Assembly: GCA_963701965.1 (NCBI GenBank)
Contig: OY969695.1
Location: 192,001-256,000 of the forward strand
Source: an uncultured Gemmatimonadales bacterium
GTDB lineage: Bacteria; Gemmatimonadota; Gemmatimonadetes; Gemmatimonadales; Gemmatimonadaceae
Length of the DNA stretch: 64,000 nt
Direction: 5' to 3'
Positions 31,769 through 63,073 of this stretch are shown here, piece by piece. Positions within the stretch are counted from its first letter, which is position 1. The number at the start of each line of letters is the position of its first letter. Below the pieces are notes generated by a model. The model was not told the DNA's origin. It made no database searches and saw only the letters and a program-made list of their open reading frames with translations. The translations under genes were made by a program, and so were the position numbers.

Positions 31769-31830
31769 GAGCGGCGGCCGCAAGCAAGCGAAGCTTGCTC
31801 GAGGACGTCCGCTCGACGGAAGGACTAGGG
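31769..31830 (-). repeat. Degenerate attC
   Basis: GAGCGGCGGCCGCAAGCAAGCGAAGCTTG...GGACGTCCGCTCGACGGAAGGACTAGGG; one core box lost. Confidence 0.75.
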
Positions 31831-45832: not shown

Positions 45833-47499
45833 AGTAATCGGCCTGCTGCCGCAAATCGCGCCGAAGAAACTCTGCGCGGCTTTGTTGTGGCAAGGTGGAA
45901 TGCGGCGCTGCGGAAGACCGATGTGGCAGTGGTGCGTACTGCCCGCGGATTAGCGTGGTCCTGGGTGACGTCATCGACATTGGTGAACCGGCTCGACGGT
46001 TTGCAGCCGCCGGGTCGGTATCCCGTTTGAGAGAATGAGCAAGACGACGTACCCGATGCGGCGCCACATTCCACAACGGATGATGGAGCAAGCCATGGCC
46101 GGACGCAACGCAAGAGTCAGCCCCAAGCCGGATAAGTCCCGAGCAGCCCTGACGATCACCCACCCCAATGCCGCCGGAATCGACATCGACAGCGCGTCCC
46201 ACTTCGTGGCCGTACCGCCGGACCGGGACGACGAACCCGTGCGCGAGTTCCCAAGCTTCACGGTCGATCTCAACGCCCTGGCCGATTGGCTCGACGCCTG
46301 CGGCGTCGATACCGTTGCGATGGAATCGACCGACGTGTACTGGATCCCTCTGTTCGAGCTGCTGGAGTCGCGCGGCTTCACCGTGCTGCTGGTCAACGCT
46401 CGCCACGTCAAGAACGTCTCCGGGCGCAAGTCCGACGTGCTGGACTGCCAGTGGCTGCAGCAGCTCATGACCTACGGCCTGCTCAGTGGGGCGTTTCGTC
46501 CGGCCGAGCAGATCTGCGTCCTGCGCTGCCTGTACCGCCAACGCGAGATGCTGCTAAAGAGCCAGGCCCGTCATGTCCAGCACATGCAAAAGGCGCTCAC
46601 GCAGATGAACACCCAGCTGACCAATGTCCTGGCCGACATCGTCGGCGCCACGGGGCAGAAGATCTTGCGCGCCATCGTCGCCGGCGAGCGCGACGGCGCT
46701 ACGCTGGGCGCGCTCAAGAATGTGCGCGTTCATGCCAGCGCCGACGAGATCGCCAAGAGCTTGCAGGGCAACTGGCGCGCAGAGCACCTGTTTGCACTCA
46801 AGCAGGCGCTGGCACTGTTCGACTTCATCGGCACGCAGCTCAGCGAGTGCGACGGCGAGATCGAAGCCCAACTGCAGAGCCTGCGCACTCACGATGGCGA
46901 TCCCGCCAAAGGCAAGAAGCGCAGCCGCTCGCGTAACGCCCCGAAGTTCGATCTGCGCGTGCAGCTGTTCCAGATGTGCGGTGTCGACCTCACCCGTATC
47001 GACGGCGTCGACGTCACCACGGCGCTGGCGGTGGTCTCGGAGATCGGCGTGGACATGGCACGCTTCCCCACCGTCAAGCACTTCACCTCCTGGCTGGGCC
47101 TGTGCCCGGGTACCAAGATCACCGGCGGCAAGGTGATGAGCGGCAAGACCAAGCGAGTCGTCAATCGCGCTGCGCAGGCCCTGCGCCTGGCCGCCGCCGC
47201 GCTGCGCAGCAGCAAGTCAGCGCTCGGCGCGTATTTCAGAAGGCTCTGCTCGCGCATGGACAAGCCCAAGGCCGTCACCGCCGCCGCACACAAAATCGCT
47301 CGGCTCATCTACTTGATGCTGACCAAAGGCCAGGAGTACACCGATCAAGGCCAGGACTACTACGAGCAACGCTACCGCGAGCGCGTCCTGCGCGCCCTAT
47401 CTCAGCGCGCCGCCAAGCTCGGTATGAAGATGGTCGCCATCGAGCAACCCGCCTGAAATCCACCCTCCAAATCAATCACTTGGAACGAGTTTCTTGAGA
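45833..47499 (+). mobile_element. IS110 family element (long type), GA core inferred
   Basis: GA at both junctions (45831-32, 47500-01); ~260-bp structured non-coding left end. Confidence 0.8.
46095..47456 (+). CDS. IS110 family transposase/recombinase
   Basis: AAGIDID, VAMEST, RKSDVLDC, SWLGLCP. Confidence 0.92.
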   Translation: MAGRNARVSPKPDKSRAALTITHPNAAGIDIDSASHFVAVPPDRDDEPVREFPSFTVDLNALADWLDACGVDTVAMESTDVYWIPLFELLESRGFTVLLVNARHVKNVSGRKSDVLDCQWLQQLMTYGLLSGAFRPAEQICVLRCLYRQREMLLKSQARHVQHMQKALTQMNTQLTNVLADIVGATGQKILRAIVAGERDGATLGALKNVRVHASADEIAKSLQGNWRAEHLFALKQALALFDFIGTQLSECDGEIEAQLQSLRTHDGDPAKGKKRSRSRNAPKFDLRVQLFQMCGVDLTRIDGVDVTTALAVVSEIGVDMARFPTVKHFTSWLGLCPGTKITGGKVMSGKTKRVVNRAAQALRLAAAALRSSKSALGAYFRRLCSRMDKPKAVTAAAHKIARLIYLMLTKGQEYTDQGQDYYEQRYRERVLRALSQRAAKLGMKMVAIEQPA

Positions 47500-48698: not shown

Positions 48699-49669
<971 letters not shown>

Positions 49670-49670
<1 letters not shown>

Positions 49671-49830
49671 CTACCCTTCCTTGCGAATGCATGTTCATCA
49701 TCGACAACTGTTCGGGCTACACGGTTGGATAAGAACGGGCCAATGCGTTGACCTAATGCTCCATCACGAGCTAGAACTCAGAGGGGTAACTGGTTTGGCG
49801 CATCGACCACGAAACTACGGCACTGCTGTG
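49670..49830 (-). ncRNA. Predicted bridge RNA (ends approximate)
   Basis: Four guide segments matching target and donor junctions in IS621 order. Confidence 0.8.
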
Positions 49831-50646: not shown

Positions 50647-51899
50647 GGGATCTTGCTCCGCTTTAGTTGACACATTGTTGTTAGGTCGTGCGTCGTTCGA
50701 AGGTAGCTGGCGGCGTGTGATCGAGAGACGAGTGCAGCCGCGTGTGGTTGTAGTACCGCAGGTAGGTGTGCAGAGTCTGCCTGAGCTCCTGGTCGCTGTC
50801 GAACCGCTTGCCCCAGAGGAACTCGCTCTTGAGTGAGTGGAAGAACGATTCCATGTGGGCGTTGTCGTTCATCTGACCGGGACGGTTCATGCTCTGCACG
50901 ATGCCGTGGCGGCGCAACGCCGCCTGGTAATCGAAGGCGCCGTACTCGATGCCGCGGTCGGTGTGGAAGATCAGGCCCGGCTCGGGTCGCCGCTTACGCA
51001 CAGCGTGCTGCAACGCTGTTCGGGTTAACTCGGCATCGCGTCTCTTGCTCAGGCTCCAGCCCACAAGCCTGCGTGAGTACTTGTCCATGACGACGGCCAT
51101 GTAGCGCCATTGCTGCCTGACGCGCAGGTAAGTGACGTCACCCACCCAGACTTGGTTGGTGTCTTGAAGCTGCAGGTGGCGCTGCCGGTTGGGGATGCGC
51201 TTGTAGAAGGCCTTCTGGCCCACCCTTCGGCGGCGATAGAGCCGCGCGCTGCGGCCCTGGATGTGTGCGCCGCGCATGAGCCTGGCGACCCGCCGGCGGC
51301 CGATTGATAAGCCCGCCTGCCGCATGGCTTGAGTCACCCGCGGACTGCCGTAGGTGTTCAAGCTGCTCGCGTGGACGCTGCGGATCTGCTCGGTGATGGC
51401 AGCGTCATCGACCTGGTGTTGGCTGGCTCCGCGTGCCTGCCAGGCGTAGAAGCCGGCCCGCGTTACGCCCAGCTGCCTGCACATCATCGCGAGGGGCCAC
51501 GCTTGCCGGTTTGTCCCGATGAAGGCGAAGACTTCGCCTTTCGTTCTGAGACAAACCGGATAGCTTTTTTTAGCAGGTCGTGCTCCATCTGCAGCTGCCG
51601 GTACTTGCCCTCGACTTCGCGCAGCCGCTGTAGCTCCGCTACAGCGGCTGCATCGAGCACCGGTGACTTGCCACTGAGCACGCCGTCTCTGACCTGCTTC
51701 CTCCACTTGGAGAGCATGAAGGGGTGGATGCACAGCGACTCGGCCACATCCTTGACGAGTACGCCGGGCTGCTCGCTCATGCGAACCGCGCGTAGCTTGA
51801 ACTCAAGCCCGTAGCGGTTGATCTTCTTCGGGCCAGGCATGCCCATTTGAGAACTCCTTCCGTTAGGTCAGAGTGTCAATCAAACCGGTGCAAGCTCCA
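50647..51899 (-). mobile_element. IS3 family element inserted in an attC
   Basis: 27-bp imperfect IRs; orfA from 51846, A7G slippery site 51564-51571; orfB WVGDVTY, HTDRG, DNAHMESFF. Confidence 0.93.
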
Positions 51900-52525: not shown

Positions 52526-53068
52526 CTACGCACTCGCCTTGGGCCACCCGACGTTTGCAGCACGACGAAGACTGGCTTTCACAACCTGGCGATGAAAGGG
52601 AGCAATGACCGATAGGTAGGCTCGGCCCAAGCGGTTGTGGCAGTAAACGACGGTTGATAGGGTCAGTTGGCTACCGGTAGTTGGCGGCGAGCCTGGCGTA
52701 CAAAGAATTGACACTCTGAAGTCAAGATGCTTGTCGTTCTCGCCTAAGACGACCTCAGTTTCGCTGGTGCTGAAGACCCTGAAGATGCTGATGCGGGGGG
52801 CTGTGGCATCACTAGAGAGCGTTGCAAGGTGCTTGGCGGTCTTCAGACCAAATCCCGCAACGATTGCATCTCGGACTTGGATGAGCGCTCCGATCCAAGA
52901 TGGCTGCTCCGCGAAGATGAATCGGGCCAAGACATCTGGATTTATAGAGGCGTCAGAAGGAAGTCGAATCGAAAACGCGTCTGCGAGGTTCACCGACTTG
53001 AATGCAGTAGCGACGGCAGACTGCGAGGGCAGGGCAACCTGCTCTACTAGCGTGAGTTTGCCTGGCAT
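52526..53068 (-). CDS. DUF2867 protein (first cassette)
   Basis: GENDKHLDFRVS; HNRLGRAY...PFH. Confidence 0.85.
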   Translation of the reverse strand: MPGKLTLVEQVALPSQSAVATAFKSVNLADAFSIRLPSDASINPDVLARFIFAEQPSWIGALIQVRDAIVAGFGLKTAKHLATLSSDATAPRISIFRVFSTSETEVVLGENDKHLDFRVSILCTPGSPPTTGSQLTLSTVVYCHNRLGRAYLSVIAPFHRQVVKASLRRAANVGWPKASA

Positions 53069-53084
53069 GGATGGACCTTCTGAG

Positions 53085-53170
53085 GCCTAACGAACAGCGT
53101 TTGTCTGACGCCGAGCCGATGTCTGTCGAAGGGCGTGACGGGACATGGCGTCAGATAAACCCCGTTGGAC
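53085..53170 (-). other. Putative attI
   Basis: Minus strand ACAAACGCTGTTC GTTAGGC just before first cassette; not of attC family; 14-bp inverted repeat 53099-53112 / 53147-53160. Confidence 0.7.
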
Positions 53171-53201
53171 TGAACCGCCGATATGGCGGTGCGCTATGGG
53201 C

Positions 53202-53231
53202 AGTGTAAGTTTCGGCGCTGAGCTAAGGCAA
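53202..53231 (-). promoter_or_regulatory. Candidate Pc cassette promoter
   Basis: TTGCCT-18 nt-TACACT pointing into attI. Confidence 0.4.
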
Positions 53232-53239
53232 CGCCGTCG

Positions 53240-53972
53240 TGCTGCGGACGAACCCGATAGCGGTGATGGTTGCTCGAAGTTGTCTTCGAATGGCGCTCGG
53301 AGTCGAGTTTGCCGCCACGGCCCGTGGCTCGATGCCTGGTAGTAGCGAAGCAGACGCGATACGTTCCCGGCCTGCGTCGACGAGGCCTTGCAGGAGACAG
53401 CCGCGCGCCCGAGCCCATCAGGGCGGCCTCCGACATGCGGTCGACGCGGCGATCGAGGTCAGCGCCGGCCGATCAGCCGCCACGTGCTGCAGCACTCGCC
53501 AGCGTCCGATACTGCAATCAGGGGCCATCCCGGTCGGTGATGGCGAGGTAGGTCTCGTCGAGCTCGACCATCCCCCAGACGATCGCGATCGGGCCGCACC
53601 ATCGCCCGGCGAAACCGGTACAGCATCGCCCAGGCGGTCTGGTAACTGCCCAGCCCGAGCACCCGCTGCAGCCCCAAGGCGCTCAGGCCCTGCTTCTGGT
53701 TGGTCAGGTACAAGGCCGCAGCCGGCCAGACCCGCGGCGGGGTGCGGGTCTTGTCGAAGATCGTTCCCGCCGTCACGGTGCTCTGGTGGCGCGCAGTCCT
53801 TGCACATCATGCGGATGCGGCTGGCACGGTAGGACACGCTCGCCACGCCGCAGCTCGGGCAGATGAAGCCGTTCGGCCAGCGCAATCCCTCCAGGTAGGC
53901 AAGGCACGCGTCCTCGGTCGAGAACTGATCGAGGAACTCGGTCCAGGTGCGTGGATAAGGTTGACTGGACAT
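53240..53972 (-). mobile_element. IS1595 family transposase remnant (left limit approximate)
   Basis: YPRTWTEF..FSTEDACLAYLEGLRWPNGFICPSC; TAGTIFDKTR; VELDETY. Confidence 0.8.
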
Positions 53973-53982
53973 GAGCGATAAG

Positions 53983-53998
53983 CTGTATATTTATCCAG
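53983..53998. promoter_or_regulatory. LexA (SOS) box
   Basis: CTGTATATTTATCCAG = CTG-N10-CAG with AT-rich spacer in a GC-rich context; TTGACT -35 at 53961. Confidence 0.85.
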
Positions 53999-54000
53999 TA

Positions 54001-55930
54001 GTGCGCCGGGAGGCCGGCAAGGAGTAGAGGGGTGAGAGTCCCCGACGACCAAGACGTAGCGAGTCATGTTGTCCCCGAGTCATGCGCAGCGCATCGCGAG
54101 GTGTGCGGCGAAGCGTTGACAGGGGTGCGTGTAGGCCAGCCATTGAGCCACGAAATGTTTATTCAGACCCGGGTGCCGACGCCGTTACTGTGGCGGAAGG
54201 CAACACGCGCGGGCGCGCCATCGCAAGTGCCCGTGCGACCCGGCGGGGTCAGAGACCCTGGCATGCACGTACGCTCCTTGCACGGGAACCGGGAGATCTG
54301 CGAACCGACCAAGCGCTGGAGCGATCCGGTGGAGGTCCGCGTCGGGAAGGCGAGGAGCCGAAGCCGATGATGAACGGGACGCAGAAGTCAGACTCGCCCA
54401 TAGTAGCGATGAAGCCGGCGAACAAACCCGAACGCCTGATGGCAGGGGCGGGTGCGGAGTCGGTGGAGCCAAGGGGCGGGGCCAAGGGGAACGCGGACCA
54501 GTCACGCACGTGCCGGACGCAGGGCCGGGAAAGCGTGTTCCAGAGGCTGGATCGCGTGCGCCAAGCCGCAAGGCAGAGGAAGAAGGAGAAGTTCACCGCG
54601 CTGATGCACCTTGTCGATGTCGAACTGCTCAGAGAGTCGTACTTCTGGCTACAGCGGAAGGCGGCCGCCGGGGTGGATGGCGTCACATGGCAACAGTACG
54701 GCGAAGGCCTCGAAGAACGGCTCGAGCAACTGCACGGGCGCATCCACCGCAACGCCTACCTGGCGACGCCGTCCCGGCGCCAGTACATCCCCAAAGCAGA
54801 CGGTCGCATGCGGCCGCTGGGGATCGCGGCGCTCGAAGACAAGATCGTCCAGCGGGCGCTGGTGGAAGTGCTCAACGCGGTCTATGAGCAAGACTTCTTG
54901 GGCTTCTCGTACGGGTTCAGGCCGCAACGCAGCCAGCATCAAGCGCTGGACGCGTTGGCGGTTGGCATCACGCGTACCAATGTGAGCTGGATCGTGGACG
55001 CCGACATCAAGAGCTTCTTCGACGCGGTCAGCCACGCGTGGTTGATCAAGTTCCTGGAGCACCGAATCGGCGACCCACGCATCATTCGCCTCATAGGCAA
55101 ATGGCTGAAGGCCGGCACGCTGGAAGAAGGCAAGCTGGTGGCAAGCGAGGAGGGCACGCCGCAAGGCGCGGTCATCTCGCCGCTGCTGGCCAACATCTAC
55201 CTGCACTACGTCTTCGATCTCTGGGCACATCAATGGCGCCAGCGCCATGCTCGGGGCAACGTGGTGATCGTGCGCTACGCCGACGATATCGTGGTCGGCG
55301 TGGACAAGGAGTCGGATGCCACGCGCTTCGTGCAGGCGATGCGATCGAGACTGGAGCAGTTCAAGCTAACGCTGCATCCCGAAAAGACCCAGGTGATCCG
55401 GTTCGGCCGCTTCGCGGCGGCCAACCGGGCCAAGCGAGGTCTGGGCAAACCGCAGACGTTCGACTTCCTCGGGTTCACGCACATCAGCGGGCACGACCGA
55501 CGCGGCAAGTTCTTGCTGCAGCGGATCACCCGGCGCGACCGGATGGTTGCTACGCTGAAGCGGATCAAGGAAGAGTTGCGGCGGCGTTGGCACATCTCGG
55601 TCCACGAGCAAGGGAAGTGGCTGCGCAAGGTGGTGCAGGGTTACTTCGGCTACCACGCCGTGCCCGGCAACTACCCGCGCATGAAGGCGTTCCGAAACCA
55701 CGTCACCGACCTCTGGCGAAAGGCGCTGCGGCGCCGGGGCCAGCGGGATCGGACGACGTGGAAGAAGGCGTTCCGGTTGGCCGCGGAGTGGTTGCCCCGA
55801 GCTCGTGTCCTTCACCCCTGGCCGAACCAGCGCTTCGACGCCACCCACCCAAGGCAGGAGCCCGGTGCGCGAATCGTGCACGCCGGGATCTGTGCGGGGG
55901 GCGCCCGGTAACGGGTGGCCCTATCGCGAT
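54001..55930 (+). mobile_element. Group II intron (IIB-like), full length
   Basis: 5' GTGCG; domain V GAGCCCGGTGCGCGAATCGTGCACGCCGGGATC at 55858; 3' AT. Confidence 0.92.
54367..55911 (+). CDS. ltrA: Group II intron reverse transcriptase/maturase, no HNH domain
   Basis: RPLGI, SYGFRP, GTPQG..ISPLLANIYL, RYADD, FDFLGF. Confidence 0.95.
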   Translation: MMNGTQKSDSPIVAMKPANKPERLMAGAGAESVEPRGGAKGNADQSRTCRTQGRESVFQRLDRVRQAARQRKKEKFTALMHLVDVELLRESYFWLQRKAAAGVDGVTWQQYGEGLEERLEQLHGRIHRNAYLATPSRRQYIPKADGRMRPLGIAALEDKIVQRALVEVLNAVYEQDFLGFSYGFRPQRSQHQALDALAVGITRTNVSWIVDADIKSFFDAVSHAWLIKFLEHRIGDPRIIRLIGKWLKAGTLEEGKLVASEEGTPQGAVISPLLANIYLHYVFDLWAHQWRQRHARGNVVIVRYADDIVVGVDKESDATRFVQAMRSRLEQFKLTLHPEKTQVIRFGRFAAANRAKRGLGKPQTFDFLGFTHISGHDRRGKFLLQRITRRDRMVATLKRIKEELRRRWHISVHEQGKWLRKVVQGYFGYHAVPGNYPRMKAFRNHVTDLWRKALRRRGQRDRTTWKKAFRLAAEWLPRARVLHPWPNQRFDATHPRQEPGARIVHAGICAGGAR

Positions 55931-55947
55931 TCAATTCGGGAGTGCAA

Positions 55948-56229
55948 GTGGACAACGCCAGCGGCCGCGTCGAGGCTGAATGTGGACGATCGGCGCCGTT
56001 TCGGTTGCTCGATGCCTTGCGCGAGCGCCTGCGGTACATGCACTACAGCTTACGGACCGAGGAAGCCTATGTCCATTGGGTGCGCGGCTTCGTACGGTGG
56101 TCGGGTCGACGCCATCCGCGCGACATGGGTGCGGCGGAGGTGCGCGATTTCCTGACCATGCTGGCGAGCGAGCGGCGCGTCGCCGCGGCCGCGCACCGGC
56201 AAGCCCTCAGCGCGCTGCTGTTCCTCTAG
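55948..56229 (+). pseudogene. intI: Integron integrase, N-terminal domain only
   Basis: [51 protein letters not shown] then stop. Confidence 0.92.
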
Positions 56230-59200
56230 TGCTACCGCGCTACGCCGAGCTTCACTGTCGCAGCAACTTCAGCTTCCTGACGGGCGCGTCGCATCCCGAG
56301 GAGCTGGTCGAGCGCGCCGCCGCGCTCGGCTACGGCGCGATCGCGATCACCGACGAGTGCTCGCTCGCCGGCGTCGTGCGCGCGCACGTCGAGGCGCAGG
56401 CGCAAAAGCTGCCGCTCGTCATCGGCAGCGAGATCCGCCTCACCGATGCCGAGACCGGCGCGCCGCATGCGCGTCTGGTGCTGCTGGCGCAGTCGCGGCG
56501 CGGCTATGGCAACCTCGCCCACTGGATCACAGTCGCGCGTCGTCGAGTCGAGAAGGGCCACTACCGCGCCCATCCGGGCGACGTCGAAGGCAAGGTGCCC
56601 AATGCGCCGATGCTCGCCGGCCTCGGCGGCTGCTTCGCCTTGCTCGTGCCCGCGGCTTCGCAGGATCCTGCCGAGATCCTGGCCCACGCGACTTGGCTCA
56701 AGAGCTGGTTCCAGGAGCGTGCGGCGATCGCCATCGAGCTGCTCCATCGCGCCGCCGACGACGATCTCGTCGACCACGTCACCGAGGTCGCGGCGCGCAC
56801 CGGCCTGCCGATCGTCGCCGCCGGCGACGTGCTGATGCACGTGCGCTCGCGAAAGCCCCTGCAGGACACGCTGACGGCGACGCGCCTCGCCAAGTCGGTG
56901 GCCGAGTGCGGCCTCGCGCTCGAGCCCAACGCCGAGCAGCACCTGCGCTCGAAGAGCCGCCTGGCCGCGCTCTACGAGCCGGCGTGGCTCGAGCAGACGA
57001 TGGCGATCGTCGCGGACTGCAAGTTCTCGCTCAGCGAGCTGAAGTACGAGTACCCGCAGGAGATCGTGCCGCCGGGCGAGACGCCGGCGTCGCAGCTGCG
57101 AAAGCTCACCTACGCGGGCGCGCTGAAGCGCTTCCCGCAGGGCCTGCCCGACGAGCACCGCGCGACGATCGAGCACGAACTCGGAGTCATCGCCGAGCTG
57201 CAGTACGAGTCGTACTTCCTCACCGTCGCCGACATCGTCGACTGGGCGCGCGAGAAGAATATCCTGTGCCAGGGCCGCGGCAGCGCCGCCAACTCGCTGG
57301 TTTGCTACTGCCTGCACGTCACCGAGGTCGACCCGCGCCGCGCCAGCCTGCTGTTCGGCCGCTTCATCAGCGTCGAGCGCAAGGAGCCGCCCGACATCGA
57401 CATCGACTTCGAGCACCAGCGGCGCGAGGAGGTGATCCAGTACATCTACGGCAAGTACGGCCGGCACCGCGCCGCGCTCGCCGCGGTGGTAATCAGCTAC
57501 CGGCCGCGCTCGGCGCTGCGCGACGTCGGCCGCGCCCTCGGCATCGACCTGCAGCGGATCGAGGCGGTGTCGAAGAGCCAGCACTGGTTCGACGGCCGCG
57601 GCATCGCGCCCGAGCGGCTGCGCGAGAACGGCTTCGATCCGGAATCTCCGGTGGTCCAGCTCTGGATGGAGCTCACCGGCCAGCTGATCGGCTTCCCGCG
57701 CCACCTCTCGCAGCATCCGGGCGGCTTCGTCATCGGCAAGAACCAGATCGAGGAGCTGGTGCCGATCGAGAACGCGGCGATGGAAGACCGGAGCGTCATC
57801 CAGTGGGACAAGGACGACCTCGAATCGCTTGGGTTGCTGAAGGTCGACATCCTCGCCATCGGCATGCTGAGCGCGATCCGCCGCTCGCTCGAGTACATCG
57901 GCACCAAGCTCGGCCGCACGCCGCTCATGATGCAGGAGATCGGCGAGGGCGACGTGCCGACCTACGACATGATCTGCAAGGCCGACACCGTCGGCGTGTT
58001 CCAGATCGAGAGCCGGGCGCAGATGAGCATGCTGCCGCGCCTGAAGCCGCGCTGCTACTACGACCTAGTGGTCGAGGTGGCGATCGTCCGGCCGGGGCCG
58101 ATCCAGGGCGGCATGGTTCATCCGTACCTGAAGAACCGCACGCTCGCCGACCGCGAGATCGACTGTCCCGAGGAGCTCAAGCCGGCGCTGCTGCGAACCA
58201 AGGGCGTGCCGATCTTCCAGGAGCAGGTGATGCAGATCGCCATGCTCGCCGCCGACTTCACCGCCGGCGAGGCCGATGCGCTGCGCCGCGCGATGGCGGC
58301 GTGGAAGCGGCGCGGCGGCCTGTCGCCGTTCCACAAGCGGCTGGTGGGCCGGATGGTCGAGAAGGGCTACACGCGCGAATACGCCGAGCGCATCTTCAAG
58401 CAGATCCAGGGCTTCGGCGAATACGGCTTTCCGGAAAGCCACGCCGCCGGCTTCGCGCTGCTCGCCTACGTCAGCAGCTGGATCAAGTGCCACCATCCCG
58501 ACGCCTTCCTCTGCGGCCTGCTCAACGCCCAGCCGATGGGCTTCTACGCGCCGGCGCAGCTGGTGCGCGATGCGCGCGAGCACGGCGTCGAGGTGCTGCC
58601 GGTCGACGTCGCGGTGAGCGACTGGGAAAGCACGATGGCGGGCGAGGGCAGCGCGAGCGCCGGGGCCGGCCCGCTCGGCCAGGGTGGCGCCGCAGCAGCC
58701 GGTCCGGCTCGGCCTCAACCGCGTCAAGGGGCTCGCCGAAGAGGCCGGCCGGCGCGTCGTCGCTGCGCGCGCCGAGGCGGCCTTCGTCAGCGTCGAAGAC
58801 CTGGCGCGGCGCGCCCTCCTCGACGCCCATGCCCTGGCGGTGCTCGCCGAATCGGGGGCACTGCAGGCGCTCACCGGCCATCGCTACCAGGCGGCGTGGG
58901 CGGTGGCGGGAATCGACACCCGGCCGACCGAGATGCTGCGCGCGACGCGTAGCCACGAAACCGGCGTGGCGCTGGCCGCGCCGAGCGAGGGCGAGGAAAC
59001 GCTCGCCGACTACCGCGCCCTCGGACTGACGCTGCAACGCCATCCGCTCGCCCTGCTGCGGCCGCAGCTCGCCGCCTTCCGCATCGAGCCGGCGGCGCGC
59101 TTGCGCACTTTTCCGAACGGCCGGCTGGCGCGTGCGAGCGGCCTGGTGACGCACCGGCAGCGGCCCGAGACGGCCAAGGGAACGGTCTTCGTCACGCTCG

Positions 59201-59415
59201 AGGACGAGACCGGCGCGGTCAACGTCATCGTCTGGCCGCGCGTCGCCGAGGCGCAGAGGAAGCCGCTGCTCGGCGCGACCCTTCTTACCGTCTACGGCCA
59301 ATGGCAGCGCCAGGGCGAGGGCGACGAGGCGGTGATGCACCTCGTCGCCGCGAAGATGATCGACCACACGTCGCTGCTCAAGGGCCTGGTCACGCGCAGC
59401 CGCGACTTCCGCTAG
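56229..59415 (+). CDS. dnaE2: Error-prone DNA polymerase DnaE2/ImuC (frameshift ~58680)
   Basis: YAELHCRSNFSFL, GRGSAANS, PPDIDIDFE, GFPESHA, terminal SRDFR. Confidence 0.95.
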
Positions 59416-59468: not shown

Positions 59469-60326
59469 ATGACTGCGCAGCTGATCACTCCGGAGCTGAA
59501 GAGCTGGATCGTCGCCCAGGCGACGGCCGGCCATCCGCCTGACATCGTTCTCGACGCGATGAAGGCGAGCGGCTGGAACGAAGACATCGCCATCGACGCG
59601 CTCGAGACGACGATGCGCGAGCACCTCGCCGGCGTGGCCGTCGCGAACGTCGCCGCGATCGAGCCGGCGCGGCCCGTTCCGGGGCGTCAGATCGTCGCCG
59701 GCACGCCCTTCGTTCACGCCGCCGACCGCGAGGTCAAGGTCGTGATGGCGCTGACGCTGCCGCGGGTCGTCGTCTTCGCCGACCTGATCAGCGACGAAGA
59801 GTGTGCCGAGCTGATCGCGCTCGCGCGCACGCGCCTGGCGCGCTCCGAGACGGTCGAGACCGCGACCGGAAGCAACGCCGTCAACCCGGCGCGCACCAGC
59901 GACGGCATGTTCTTCCAGCCGGCCGAGTTCCCGGTCTGCGGACGGATCGAGCAGCGCATCGCGGCGCTCCTCGATTGGCCGCTCGAGAATGGCGAGGGCC
60001 TGCAGATCCTGCGCTATGGCCCGGGAACGCAGTATCAGCCGCACTACGACTACTTCGACCCCGCGGAGGCGGGAACGCCGACCATCCTCAAGCGCGGCGG
60101 CCAGCGCGTCGCCTCGATCGTCTGCTACCTGAACACGCCCGAGGCCGGCGGCGCGACCGTCTTTCCCGACGCCGGTCTCGAGGTCGCGCCGGTGCGCGGC
60201 AACGCCGTCTTCTTCAGCTACGACCGGCCGCATCCGGCGACGCGCACCCTGCACGGCGGCGCCGAGGTCAGCGCCGGCGAGAAGTGGGTGGCGACGAAAT
60301 GGATGCGCGAGGGCCGATTCGAGTGA
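59469..60326 (+). CDS. 2OG-Fe(II) oxygenase, prolyl 4-hydroxylase-like
   Basis: EGLQILRY, PHYDYF, GGQRVAS, TLHGG, KWVATKW. Confidence 0.92.
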   Translation: MTAQLITPELKSWIVAQATAGHPPDIVLDAMKASGWNEDIAIDALETTMREHLAGVAVANVAAIEPARPVPGRQIVAGTPFVHAADREVKVVMALTLPRVVVFADLISDEECAELIALARTRLARSETVETATGSNAVNPARTSDGMFFQPAEFPVCGRIEQRIAALLDWPLENGEGLQILRYGPGTQYQPHYDYFDPAEAGTPTILKRGGQRVASIVCYLNTPEAGGATVFPDAGLEVAPVRGNAVFFSYDRPHPATRTLHGGAEVSAGEKWVATKWMREGRFE

Positions 60327-60414: not shown

Positions 60415-60628
60415 ATGAAGACCCTCATCGCCGCCGTCATCGCCTCGGCAGTCAGCTTCGGCGCCTTTGCCCAGACCACCCCGGCCGCCTCGGCGCCGAT
60501 GGCCAAGCCGACGGCGTCGGACAGCGGCCGCCAAGAAGAGCAGCACGAGCACCCACAAGTCGAGCTCGACGTCGAGCAAGAAGCACCACAGCAGCAGCAG
60601 CAAGAAGGCGTCGGCGCCAGCCGCCTGA
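60415..60628 (+). CDS. Small secreted Lys/Ser/His-rich protein (frameshifted)
   Basis: AAGGAA RBS; signal peptide MKTLIAAVIA; KKSSTSTHK...KKHH tail in the shifted frame. Confidence 0.65.
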
Positions 60629-60645
60629 GCGCTCCCGCGCGAACG

Positions 60646-60673
60646 AAAGCCCGGTCTCGACCGGGCTTTTTTT
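60646..60673 (+). terminator. Intrinsic terminator, likely bidirectional
   Basis: AAAGCCCGGT-CTCG-ACCGGGCTTTTTTT. Confidence 0.9.
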
Positions 60674-60677
60674 CGTG

Positions 60678-62556
60678 GTGCGCCCGGCACGGGCGCACTC
60701 TTGCGGGTGCAAGTCCCGCCGTAAGTTGATCACAGCGAACGAAGTGAAACGCAACTGCATGAGGGTGACCGAGTGTGGGGAGGAAGCGTGGATCGAAGCT
60801 GCGAGCCGATGAACAAGAACCGGATAGAAGGCGCTGCCAAGCAGGGCGAGCGGGCCATGAACCGCGAAGCTCTCGTGATCAAGGCGAGGTGGCGTAGATC
60901 CGGCGGTTGTGCAGCGAAGGAGTGCGTTCTTACCCGGGGAGATCTCGCCTTGCGCCTGAAAGGGCGACGGCCTATGCCGGAGCGAGAAGTCAGCAGAGGT
61001 CGTAGTAGTGCCGGTAGCCTGCCGCTGAGGCGAGAGTGAAAGCGCGAAGGGCCGAACGAGAGTAAGTGACCGAAGACATGGGGATGTCAGAAGGCCATGC
61101 GTCAGATGCCGGAGCAATCCGGGCGGGTGGGCGTAGCGCGCGGTGAAGCCGGGCGTGAAGCTGCCAGTGACGAAGCCTGCGGCCCGCCCAATGAGCACCC
61201 GGGCACGGGTCGGCAAGGCCGAAGGCGGGGGCTGGCACCCTGCTGGAGGCGGCGCTGACGAGAGAACCTGCAGGTGGCGTGGAAGCGGGTCAAGGCCAAC
61301 AAGGGCGCAGCAGGGGTGGACGGGCTCGACATCGAGCAGACGGCTCAAACGCTGGCGCACGAGGTGGCCGCAGATACGCGAAGCGTTGCTGGCGGGCAAG
61401 TACCGGCCTGAGCCGGTGCGAAGGGTGATGCTCCAAGCCGGACGGGAGCGAGCGCGAGCTGGGCATCCCCACGGTGCTGGATCGGCTGATCCAGCAGGCA
61501 CTGCTGCAAGTGCTGCAACCCTGATCGACCCCACCTTCAGCGAACACAGCCAGGGGTTTCGTCCGGGGCGGCGGGCGCACGACGCGGTCACGGCTGCGCG
61601 GGCGTACGTGCAAACGGGCAAGCGCGTGGTGGTGGACGTGGACCTGGCGAAGTTCTTCGACCGGGTCAACCACGACATCCTGATAGACCGGCTGCGCAAG
61701 CGCATCGACGATGCTGGAGTGATCCGGCTGGTGCGGGCGTACCTGAGCGCCGGGATCATGGATGGCGGGGTGGTGGTCGAGCGCCACATGGGCACGCCGC
61801 AAGGCGGGCCGCTGTCACCGTTGCTGGCCAACGTGTTGCTGGACGAAGTGGATAAGGTCTTGGAGGCGCGGGGCTACAGCTTCGCCCGCTATGCCGATGA
61901 CTGCAACGTCTATGTGGGCAGCATGAAGGCTGGGCAGCGGGTGATGGCGCTGCTGGGAGGGCTGTACGCCGGGCTCAAGCTTCAGATCAACGCAGTCAAG
62001 AGCGCGGTGGGCAGTGCATTGGGGCGCAAGTTCCTGGGCTACGCGCTGTGGGGGGCCGAGGGCCGGGAGGTCAAATGCGCCGTGGCCGCCAAGCCACTGC
62101 GGGACTTCAAGGCCCGTATCCGGCAGCTCACACGCCGCTCGGGCGGGCGCAGCATGGAGCAAGTGGTGCAGGGATTGCGGCCGTACCTGCTGGGCTGGAA
62201 GGCGTACTTCGGGCTGGCGCAAACACCCGAAGGTCTGGCGCGGGCTGGACGAGTGGCTGCGTCACCGATTGCGAGCGATCCAGCTCAGACACTGGAAGCG
62301 GCCGGCGACGATGTACCGCGAGCTCAAGGCACTTGGCGCGGGGGAAACGGTTGCGCAGGCGAGTGGCGGTCAACAGTCGCCGCTGGTGGCGTAACAGTGA
62401 TGGCCTGCTCAAGACCGTGCTGACCATTGCCTACTTCGACAGACTGGGCGTACCCAGGCTCTCATGACCTCAAGCTCTCGAACCGCCCGGTGCGGACCCG
62501 CATGCCGGGTGGTGTGGCAGGGGTGCCTCCTCTAATGGAGCGCCCCCTATGCCGAT
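60678..62556 (+). mobile_element. Group IIC intron
   Basis: GTGCG 4 nt after terminator T-tract; short domain V with CGC triad at ~62480; 3' AT. Confidence 0.92.
61085..62467 (+). CDS. Group IIC RT/maturase (several frameshifts; start approximate)
   Basis: [35 protein letters not shown]. Confidence 0.9.
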
Positions 62557-62585
62557 CCGATGAACCCGGCGCGACGTCGATCGGC

Positions 62586-63073
62586 TCAGGCGTGGGCGCC
62601 GTGGGCGTAGCCGAACGGCCGACTGCGTCGATACGTCGGTTCTTGCGCTCGGCCCAGGTCTGCGGCCCTTCGAGCTGCCAGCGCTCGACGCTCGCGACCA
62701 GCTCGTCCTTGGCCAGGCGTCGAAACGCCCGGCCCGCCGAGTCGCCGCGCCAGGCGGCAAAGCGCAGCCGCCAGGGCAGGGCGGCGACCGGCGCCGCGAC
62801 CCAGTAGACGCAGCGGCGCTCGTTCCAGAACGACATGCGCTCGAAGTTGACCCGCCCGGCGAAGCCGGTGTTGGGCTCGAACAGCGCGTAGCCCGCGTCG
62901 TCTGCGAGCTCGACCACGCTATGGGCGATGTCGCCAGGCGTATTGCCGAGGCCGCGGTAGACGAAGTAGACGCGGCGGATGCTCTCGGCCGGCAAACGGT
63001 CGACCTCGACCTCGTCGCGGTAGACGACGATGTCGTTGTGCTGCCAGAGGGTTCGCCAGGTCGTCGTCTTCAT
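62586..63073 (-). CDS. Hypothetical protein
   Basis: [10 protein letters not shown]...FAGRVNFER; stop inferred via one frameshift. Confidence 0.65.

Follow-up and report, generated by a model that had tools for sequence, protein, structure and literature searches.

Three kinds of described system are among those closest to the locus considered here. Integron integrases are under LexA control and are frequently inactivated (43–46%; Cambray et al. 2011, PMC3108266). In split cassettes, imuA-imuB and dnaE2 occupy separate loci, each with its own SOS box (PMC3901139). Finally, the chromosomal integrons of the Burkholderiales are the source of the class 1 and class 3 integrons (PMC8618304, PMC5460862). 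We compared these with a locus in the window, a stretch of 64,000 nucleotides of contig OY969695.1 (assembly GCA_963701965.1), in whose positions all coordinates are given unless stated otherwise. As in the LexA-regulated integrases, an E. coli-type box stands just upstream of intI; here, however, it also stands ahead of dnaE2, and neither “operon” nor “polymerase” occurs in the main text of PMC3108266. As in the split imuAB/imuC cassettes, imuA-imuB lie elsewhere in the relatives and have their own box, but here an integron integrase is placed between the box and dnaE2, and “integron” is absent from the accessible text of PMC3901139. The accessible portions of the papers on the Burkholderiales class 1 and class 3 sources make no mention of an anchoring to dnaE2; the window integrase, judged through its relative L051, is about 60% identical to IntI1 and IntI3, and hence belongs to neither class. 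Openly accessible article listings and abstracts yielded no description of an intI-dnaE2 linkage, although the integrase loci tabulated in the supplements of PMC3108266 may show it. We regard it as quite probable that many Rubrivivax-group Burkholderiales conserve a unit of LexA box, intI and dnaE2, and that the locus is such a unit in decay.

The window does not appear to share the ancestry of most of the assembly. The first ~330 kb of the contig differ in tetranucleotide make-up from the remainder and repeat four tRNA types that are also present elsewhere in the assembly. The window RecJ is 71–79% identical to its counterparts in three Burkholderiales genomes versus 36% in two genomes of the assembly’s own genus, whereas the LexA encoded at 4.88 Mb displays the opposite pattern (93–94% to the own genus, 39–40% to Burkholderiales). 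The sole 16S gene, at 344–346 kb of the contig, is near the composition switch. It is likely that a Burkholderiales block of ~330–340 kb, with housekeeping genes and with the whole window inside it, was mis-joined to the genome of an unrelated lineage, by its appearance Gemmatimonadota. The quality figures in the assembly record (95% complete, 4.2% contaminated) conceal this mis-join, and the record is a warning, with about 330 kb of the genome coming from another organism. The block is also rich in errors: 14 of the 26 genes compared with G041, the nearest relative, contain frameshifts (22 shifts in 32.3 kb, or 0.68 per kb). The first-pass annotation had suggested locating imuA/imuB and other intI genes in the genome; the former search is misleading because the assembly is chimeric. 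Outside the block, an imuA-imuB-dnaE2 set lies at 2.27–2.28 Mb; this and the two lexA genes of the assembly were rejected as informative on the window locus, being the other organism’s. The imuAB and lexA of the organism from which the block comes are not part of the assembly. No other integron integrase, and no missing 3′ part of intI, was found anywhere in the assembly. On reading the ORFs of this other organism’s locus, we observed a putative radical-SAM-like photolyase-type ORF just upstream of imuA-imuB (contig 2272600–2273800; L029 6609–7796) and a putative ABC permease gene on the opposite side, between imuB and dnaE2.

At the locus itself, the plus-strand intI stub (55948–56229), preceded by a GGGAG ribosome site, runs from a GTG at 55948 to a TAG at 56227–56229 and encodes 93 aa; the G of the TAG is the first base of the dnaE2 GTG at 56229–56231. 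The stub covers only positions 1–74 of the 315 of the integron integrase model TIGR02249, below its cut-off, and a Pfam scan recovers the N-terminal SAM-like domain alone. None of the catalytic residues remains, so the full-length tyrosine recombinase of a complete integron is lacking; having lost the catalytic domain, the integron is unable to move cassettes by itself. The stub, its stop/start overlap and a deletion that froze the integron by taking the catalytic part of intI, all proposed in the first pass, are borne out in this assembly. In a DNA alignment across the plus-strand junction (56227–56231), G041 430–652 matches 56006–56228 and the alignment restarts at G041 1553, which corresponds to 56229. 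About 900 bp of intI have thus been lost relative to G041, with the right end of the loss exactly at the dnaE2 start. Across 75 aa the stub and the intact L051 IntI are 87% identical, a value no lower than that for DnaE2 (82%), so the loss is either recent or an error.

The dnaE2 (imuC) gene occupies 56229–59415 on the plus strand. The N-terminal part of its product scores 1198.6 bits against the NF004225 cut-off of 939, from profile position 3 onward, and the PHP, NTPase, finger, HhH and OB domains are all found, spread over two frames by one frameshift near 58640–58690. On the two sides of this shift the identity to the G041 protein is 82% and 79%, and, given that over half of the genes compared in this error-rich block are frameshifted, it is probably a sequence error. 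An in-frame ATG at 55980, within the stub, offers an alternative start, with no stop between it and dnaE2. Downstream, a plus-strand gene for a 2OG-Fe(II) oxygenase (59469–60326; PF13640) follows dnaE2, as it does in many relatives, and 45 kb downstream of the locus are collinear with G041. A group II intron that is frameshifted and unrelated to the one upstream of the stub (60452–62600; RF02001, RF01998) lies 1.3 kb 3′ of dnaE2 and is absent from G041.

The pairing of the two genes recurs in the relatives of the window. The best DnaE2 matches come from Rubrivivax-group Burkholderiales (up to 82%), and among the 178 IntI loci with enough downstream DNA, intI lies upstream of dnaE2 on the same strand within 3.5 kb in 35, of which 32 have it within 380 nt, the linked group being Rubrivivax/Ideonella/Aquabacterium. 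It is a minority state, as 15 of 117 IntI are linked to dnaE2 in an even sample of the family. A LexA box is found upstream of 31 of 34 linked versus 61 of 132 unlinked IntI loci, counts in which kin are not independent. In 32 linked loci, the intI frame either overlaps dnaE2 (17 loci) or ends within 105 nt of the first conserved dnaE2 codon (15 loci). A long C-terminal tail of low complexity takes the intI frame into dnaE2 in 16 linked loci, L051 among them, and in all of these it stops at one shared codon, which lies 42 nt beyond the first dnaE2 codon that is conserved. Approached from the other side, 109 dnaE2 rows (two of them duplicates) have as their upstream neighbor intI in 23, a box within 250 nt in 28 (L078 and L086 counted as box-only), imuB in 45 and something else in 13; the imuB call used four queries, of which the L078-derived one is not imuB. 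Thus, imuB is the commonest upstream neighbor among the more distant dnaE2 genes. The 30 family loci nearest to the window dnaE2 have intI in nine, a box directly in 13, imuB in three and others in five. All intI-linked dnaE2 genes fall within one 48-row clade of a quick dnaE2 tree (support 99).

We looked for the genes that usually accompany dnaE2: imuA and imuB are absent upstream, as the first-pass annotation had noted, and throughout the first 340 kb of the contig, and the locus accordingly lacks the imuA-imuB-dnaE2 operon arrangement with imuA and imuB directly upstream of dnaE2. In all five relatives examined, imuA and imuB are adjacent at a separate locus with no dnaE2 within 11–14 kb, in four of them with a box of their own. 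Moreover, in separate trees the stub and dnaE2 each group most closely with L051 and L067 (support 100 and 98). Given that the intact relatives show box-intI-dnaE2 with imuAB elsewhere and that the stub and dnaE2 share their nearest relatives, dnaE2 behind intI without imuA/imuB is the ancestral layout of the window’s subgroup. Broken versions of intI are also encountered at other linked loci: one has an internal deletion with box and dnaE2 kept (L048), one is split by an insertion (L347) and one is truncated, with dnaE2 having its own box (L355). In G042 (L063, L148) and G135 (L275, L166) the box stands directly before dnaE2 and a related intI is at another locus, which would fit a relocation of the integron away from dnaE2. 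No attC was found with the profile upstream of the box-only dnaE2 loci (four of four tested), a result that offers no support for an origin of the box-dnaE2 state by loss of intI.

Upstream of the stub, the bases at 53983–53998 constitute what we take, from the E. coli-type consensus, to be a LexA (SOS) box. They match the internal box of an IS1595 element, and lie within a minus-strand remnant of such an element (53520–53999; NF033547, PF12760, with plasmid matches), which in its transposase family and in the terminal repeats of its kin is like the ISRama1/ISCsp2-like members of the IS1595 family. What is left is the 5′ half of the transposase, frameshifted and covering only residues 9–154 of 332 relative to full copies; both terminal repeats are missing, so the element is not intact. 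An IS relative in all four soil runs matches 53851–53999 and then continues into the IS end, with no difference in 53959–53999 among those listed, and L280 and L281 carry the same internal IS box. By these matches the window box is IS1595-derived and not the preserved integrase SOS box of the first pass; it is likely joined directly to the last bases of the native intI box. With the intron excluded, the box-to-core spacing is 89 nt versus 90 in several other intI loci. The native −35/−10 appears to have been replaced by IS DNA, and a promoter/terminator scan found no sigma-70 promoter in 53000–56500; hence, SOS control may have been lost in the window copy. We had considered 55931–55960 as the left end of the IS; this was rejected, as the soil IS copies continue differently and the spacing suits a native intI leader.

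The placement of the IS conforms to a wider pattern. In related IS copies the left half of a LexA box lies exactly 14 nt outside the end in 20 of 24 visible ends (15 loci; background 1.1% per position), and the insertion is flanked by duplicate copies of the box core. ISRama1/ISCsp2-like elements insert within LexA boxes in L281–L297 and L172, breaking both halves; in L172, an IS of this group sits inside the box of a dnaE2-linked intI. Several of these elements also have a LexA-like box before their own transposase. On one soil contig (run X3) an IS end, a half box and a window-type intron follow one another consecutively. We found no account of IS1595 insertion inside LexA boxes with core duplication in openly accessible article listings and abstracts.

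The intron in question, the 1.9-kb insertion that the first-pass annotation had placed between box and stub, is present at 54001–55930 on the plus strand, inserted 2 nt after the box (TIGR04416 above cut-off, RF02005). It is a group II intron with a GUGYG 5′ end, an AY 3′ end, domains I, V and VI, an intact RT/maturase ORF (54367–55911) and predicted EBS-IBS pairing, and it has full-length relatives of up to 84.8% identity. With its present 5′ exon, EBS1 pairs at 5 of 6 positions and EBS2 at 4 of 6 (4–6 of 6 in relatives). Among plasmid loci, the 5′ exon of such introns ends in a LexA box in 8 of 16, and among loci of the family in 1 of 20; the LexA-box copies are those whose EBS1 is complementary to the box end, and copies with other EBS have other targets. 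In the window, EBS1 and EBS2 (54150–54200) jointly complement the right part of a LexA box, and relatives with the same EBS (L319–L325, L334, L309) occupy SOS promoters in two registers, box+T and box+TA. Two of the box-end copies adjoin imuA and one adjoins umuD. A related intron, Kl.pn.I5, has about 72% DNA identity in its Klebsiella plasmid copy beside umuD, also at a LexA-box end; the window intron, in contrast, is one base further (box+TA), as in its 84.8% Ralstonia relatives. Conserved intergenic insertion sites have been described for Kl.pn.I5, and the accessible text of that paper mentions neither LexA, SOS nor umu (PMC3522654). Intron homing to LexA boxes was likewise not found in openly accessible article listings and abstracts.

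As to the expression of dnaE2, the same scan of 53000–56500 found no terminator, so read-through into dnaE2 would not be blocked by one. No Shine-Dalgarno sequence precedes the dnaE2 GTG in the window or in G041, which makes it a reasonable inference that in both dnaE2 translation is coupled to the upstream frame. The translational coupling suggested in the first pass is compatible with this absence. Its independent dnaE2 promoter inside the stub, raised as a possible refutation, does not figure among the scan results. Its further proposal that dnaE2 was put under the promoter upstream of intI holds in part: dependence on a promoter in that position is likely, but the deletion did not place dnaE2 there, since the intact relatives have the same order.

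This bears on the reading in which a deletion took both the 3′ end of intI and imuA-imuB, brought dnaE2 newly under SOS control from the integrase promoter and left selection on dnaE2 to keep box and stub. The junction indeed fuses intI to dnaE2 with a stop/start overlap, and imuB is the most frequent upstream neighbor of the more distant dnaE2 genes (the 45 of 109 rows above). However, the nearest relatives have an intact intI directly before dnaE2 with imuAB not between them, the loss of about 900 bp falls wholly in intI and its tail, and the box is IS-derived. With imuAB at a separate locus in five of five relatives, a removal of imuA/imuB by the deletion is contradicted; the new capture of dnaE2 is already refuted by L051 and L067, and the reading as a whole is highly improbable. 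We also consider it unlikely that the whole unit is dead, with the promoter destroyed by IS and intron, dnaE2 a frameshifted pseudogene and the stop/start overlap a product of chance. The replaced promoter, the decayed IS, the truncated intI and a dnaE2 whose reading frame shifts ahead of the helix-hairpin-helix and OB domains would all suit such a unit. Yet one shift in 3.2 kb is fewer than the 2.2 expected from the error rate of the block, the identity of DnaE2 to G041 (82%, 79%) resembles that of neighboring genes, dnaE2 has no in-frame stops and the stub shows no decay (87%).

A more serious competitor, if still the less favored one, is that the 900 bp were dropped by mistake in assembly or consensus calling, in a long-read block of low quality, and that the organism’s intI-dnaE2 pair is intact. 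The block is mis-joined to another genome and carries the 22 frameshifts noted above; three separate losses (the 3′ part of the IS, its left end and intI) fall within 3 kb; and both breakpoints have, within a few bases, short repeats that the dnaE2 start shares with the continuation of intI in L051. The junction also lacks independent support: its exact 23-base pattern had no match in a metagenome collection, and none of the listed contig pieces of four public runs, which contained at most 0.28 of the sampled words, bridges it. As those pieces are relatives’ DNA from other strains and not from the window strain, the missing bridge is no evidence either way. A search of the assembly’s own genus and family returned only short, weak matches to the junction, and DnaE2 matches of 41–53%, and was rejected as coming from the wrong lineage, to which the block is foreign. 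Against an error, the errors seen in the block are one-base shifts, and three other large gaps relative to G041 (those checked out of four whose window side is shorter than 60 nt) span whole ORFs or most of one and not gene interiors. Further, the right breakpoint coincides precisely with the start codon, a similar loss is present in L048, an independent short-contig genome, and integrase inactivation is common in integrons, as the accessible text of PMC3108266 reports. Thus, of the first-pass annotation’s concern over a misassembled junction, the chimerism of the block stands, but the 900-bp junction itself is probably real in the organism.

The cassette array associated with the stub lies at 31769–52500 on the minus strand, opposite to intI, with at least 16 attC-like sites. 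An attC profile iterated from four seed sites gave 21 window matches, 16 of them at E below 1e-6 and all on the minus strand, and all 17 genome-wide matches fall within the array; an attC array with cassette ORFs opposite intI is thus in place, as in a complete integron. The first cassette ORF (DUF2867 by Pfam; 53068–52526) adjoins a likely attI region at 53085–53170 (minus strand), a heuristic match recognized from its position and a core motif, with the core site at the left end. A 13-base inverted repeat (53100–53160) flanks the left part of this region. The array is interrupted by three transposase-like ORFs (46035–47456, 48699–49707 and 50681–51846), two of which adjoin attC sites; from ORF reading they look like two of IS110-type and one of IS3-type.

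The relationship of this integron to the mobile classes deserves separate consideration. L051, the nearest intact relative, has 59–62% identity to both IntI1 and IntI3 (L338 and L339, taken from annotated plasmids) and is thus of neither class 1 nor class 3. IntI1 and IntI3 fall inside the one clade with all linked integrases (support 100/100 in a 78-row tree and 99 in the 178-row tree), a clade in which 79 of 116 rows are unlinked. The 78-row tree put IntI1 deep among linked rows. On the 178-row tree the linkage label needs eight changes, at least four of them forced, and a single gain of dnaE2 linkage, which a 69-row IntI tree had suggested, was not upheld. In a two-state reconstruction, a linked ancestor of IntI1 received 0.88–0.95 on the best tree, and 12 of the 28 bootstrap trees gave it at least 0.5; the corresponding number for IntI3 was 5 of 28, and the window’s subgroup came out as a separate gain of linkage. 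A descent of the class 1 integrase from a dnaE2-anchored integron is possible, and repeated independent pairing is equally possible. We tentatively entertain a broader scenario, in which the class 1 ancestor was a Rubrivivax-group integron before dnaE2 and sharing its LexA box, the SOS control of clinical integrases stems from a “shuffle and mutate” operon, and elements of the IS1595 group and the intron land in the box and drive decay.

For the window, the reading as a decayed unit would entail the following history. In the ancestral unit, DNA damage would have induced one predicted transcript, and with it both cassette shuffling and error-prone replication. The native intI promoter box would then have been struck by an IS1595 element and by a group II intron, each of a LexA-box-targeting kind. 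A later deletion between two CAGT ends may have taken the IS terminus and left the IS box at the native spacing, as the close agreement of the two box-to-core distances indicates. Another deletion would have taken some 900 bp out of intI, up to the start codon of dnaE2. Transcription of dnaE2 would now pass through intron and stub, and its translation could proceed by coupling to the stub’s stop.

The single truncation in the window is ordinary when taken alone and may be an assembly error; the weight rests on the conserved pairing and on the box-targeting elements. The pairing points to a candidate home locus of the clade of integrases to which IntI1 and IntI3 belong. With two kinds of mobile element directed at LexA operators, there would be a general way in which SOS genes are rewired or broken. 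Should intI and dnaE2 share a single LexA-controlled transcript, two stress-induced sources of variation, cassette shuffling and translesion mutagenesis, would be wired together in these bacteria, and selection on dnaE2 would offer a reason for a chromosomal integron to hold on to its SOS box and its position after the death of its integrase.
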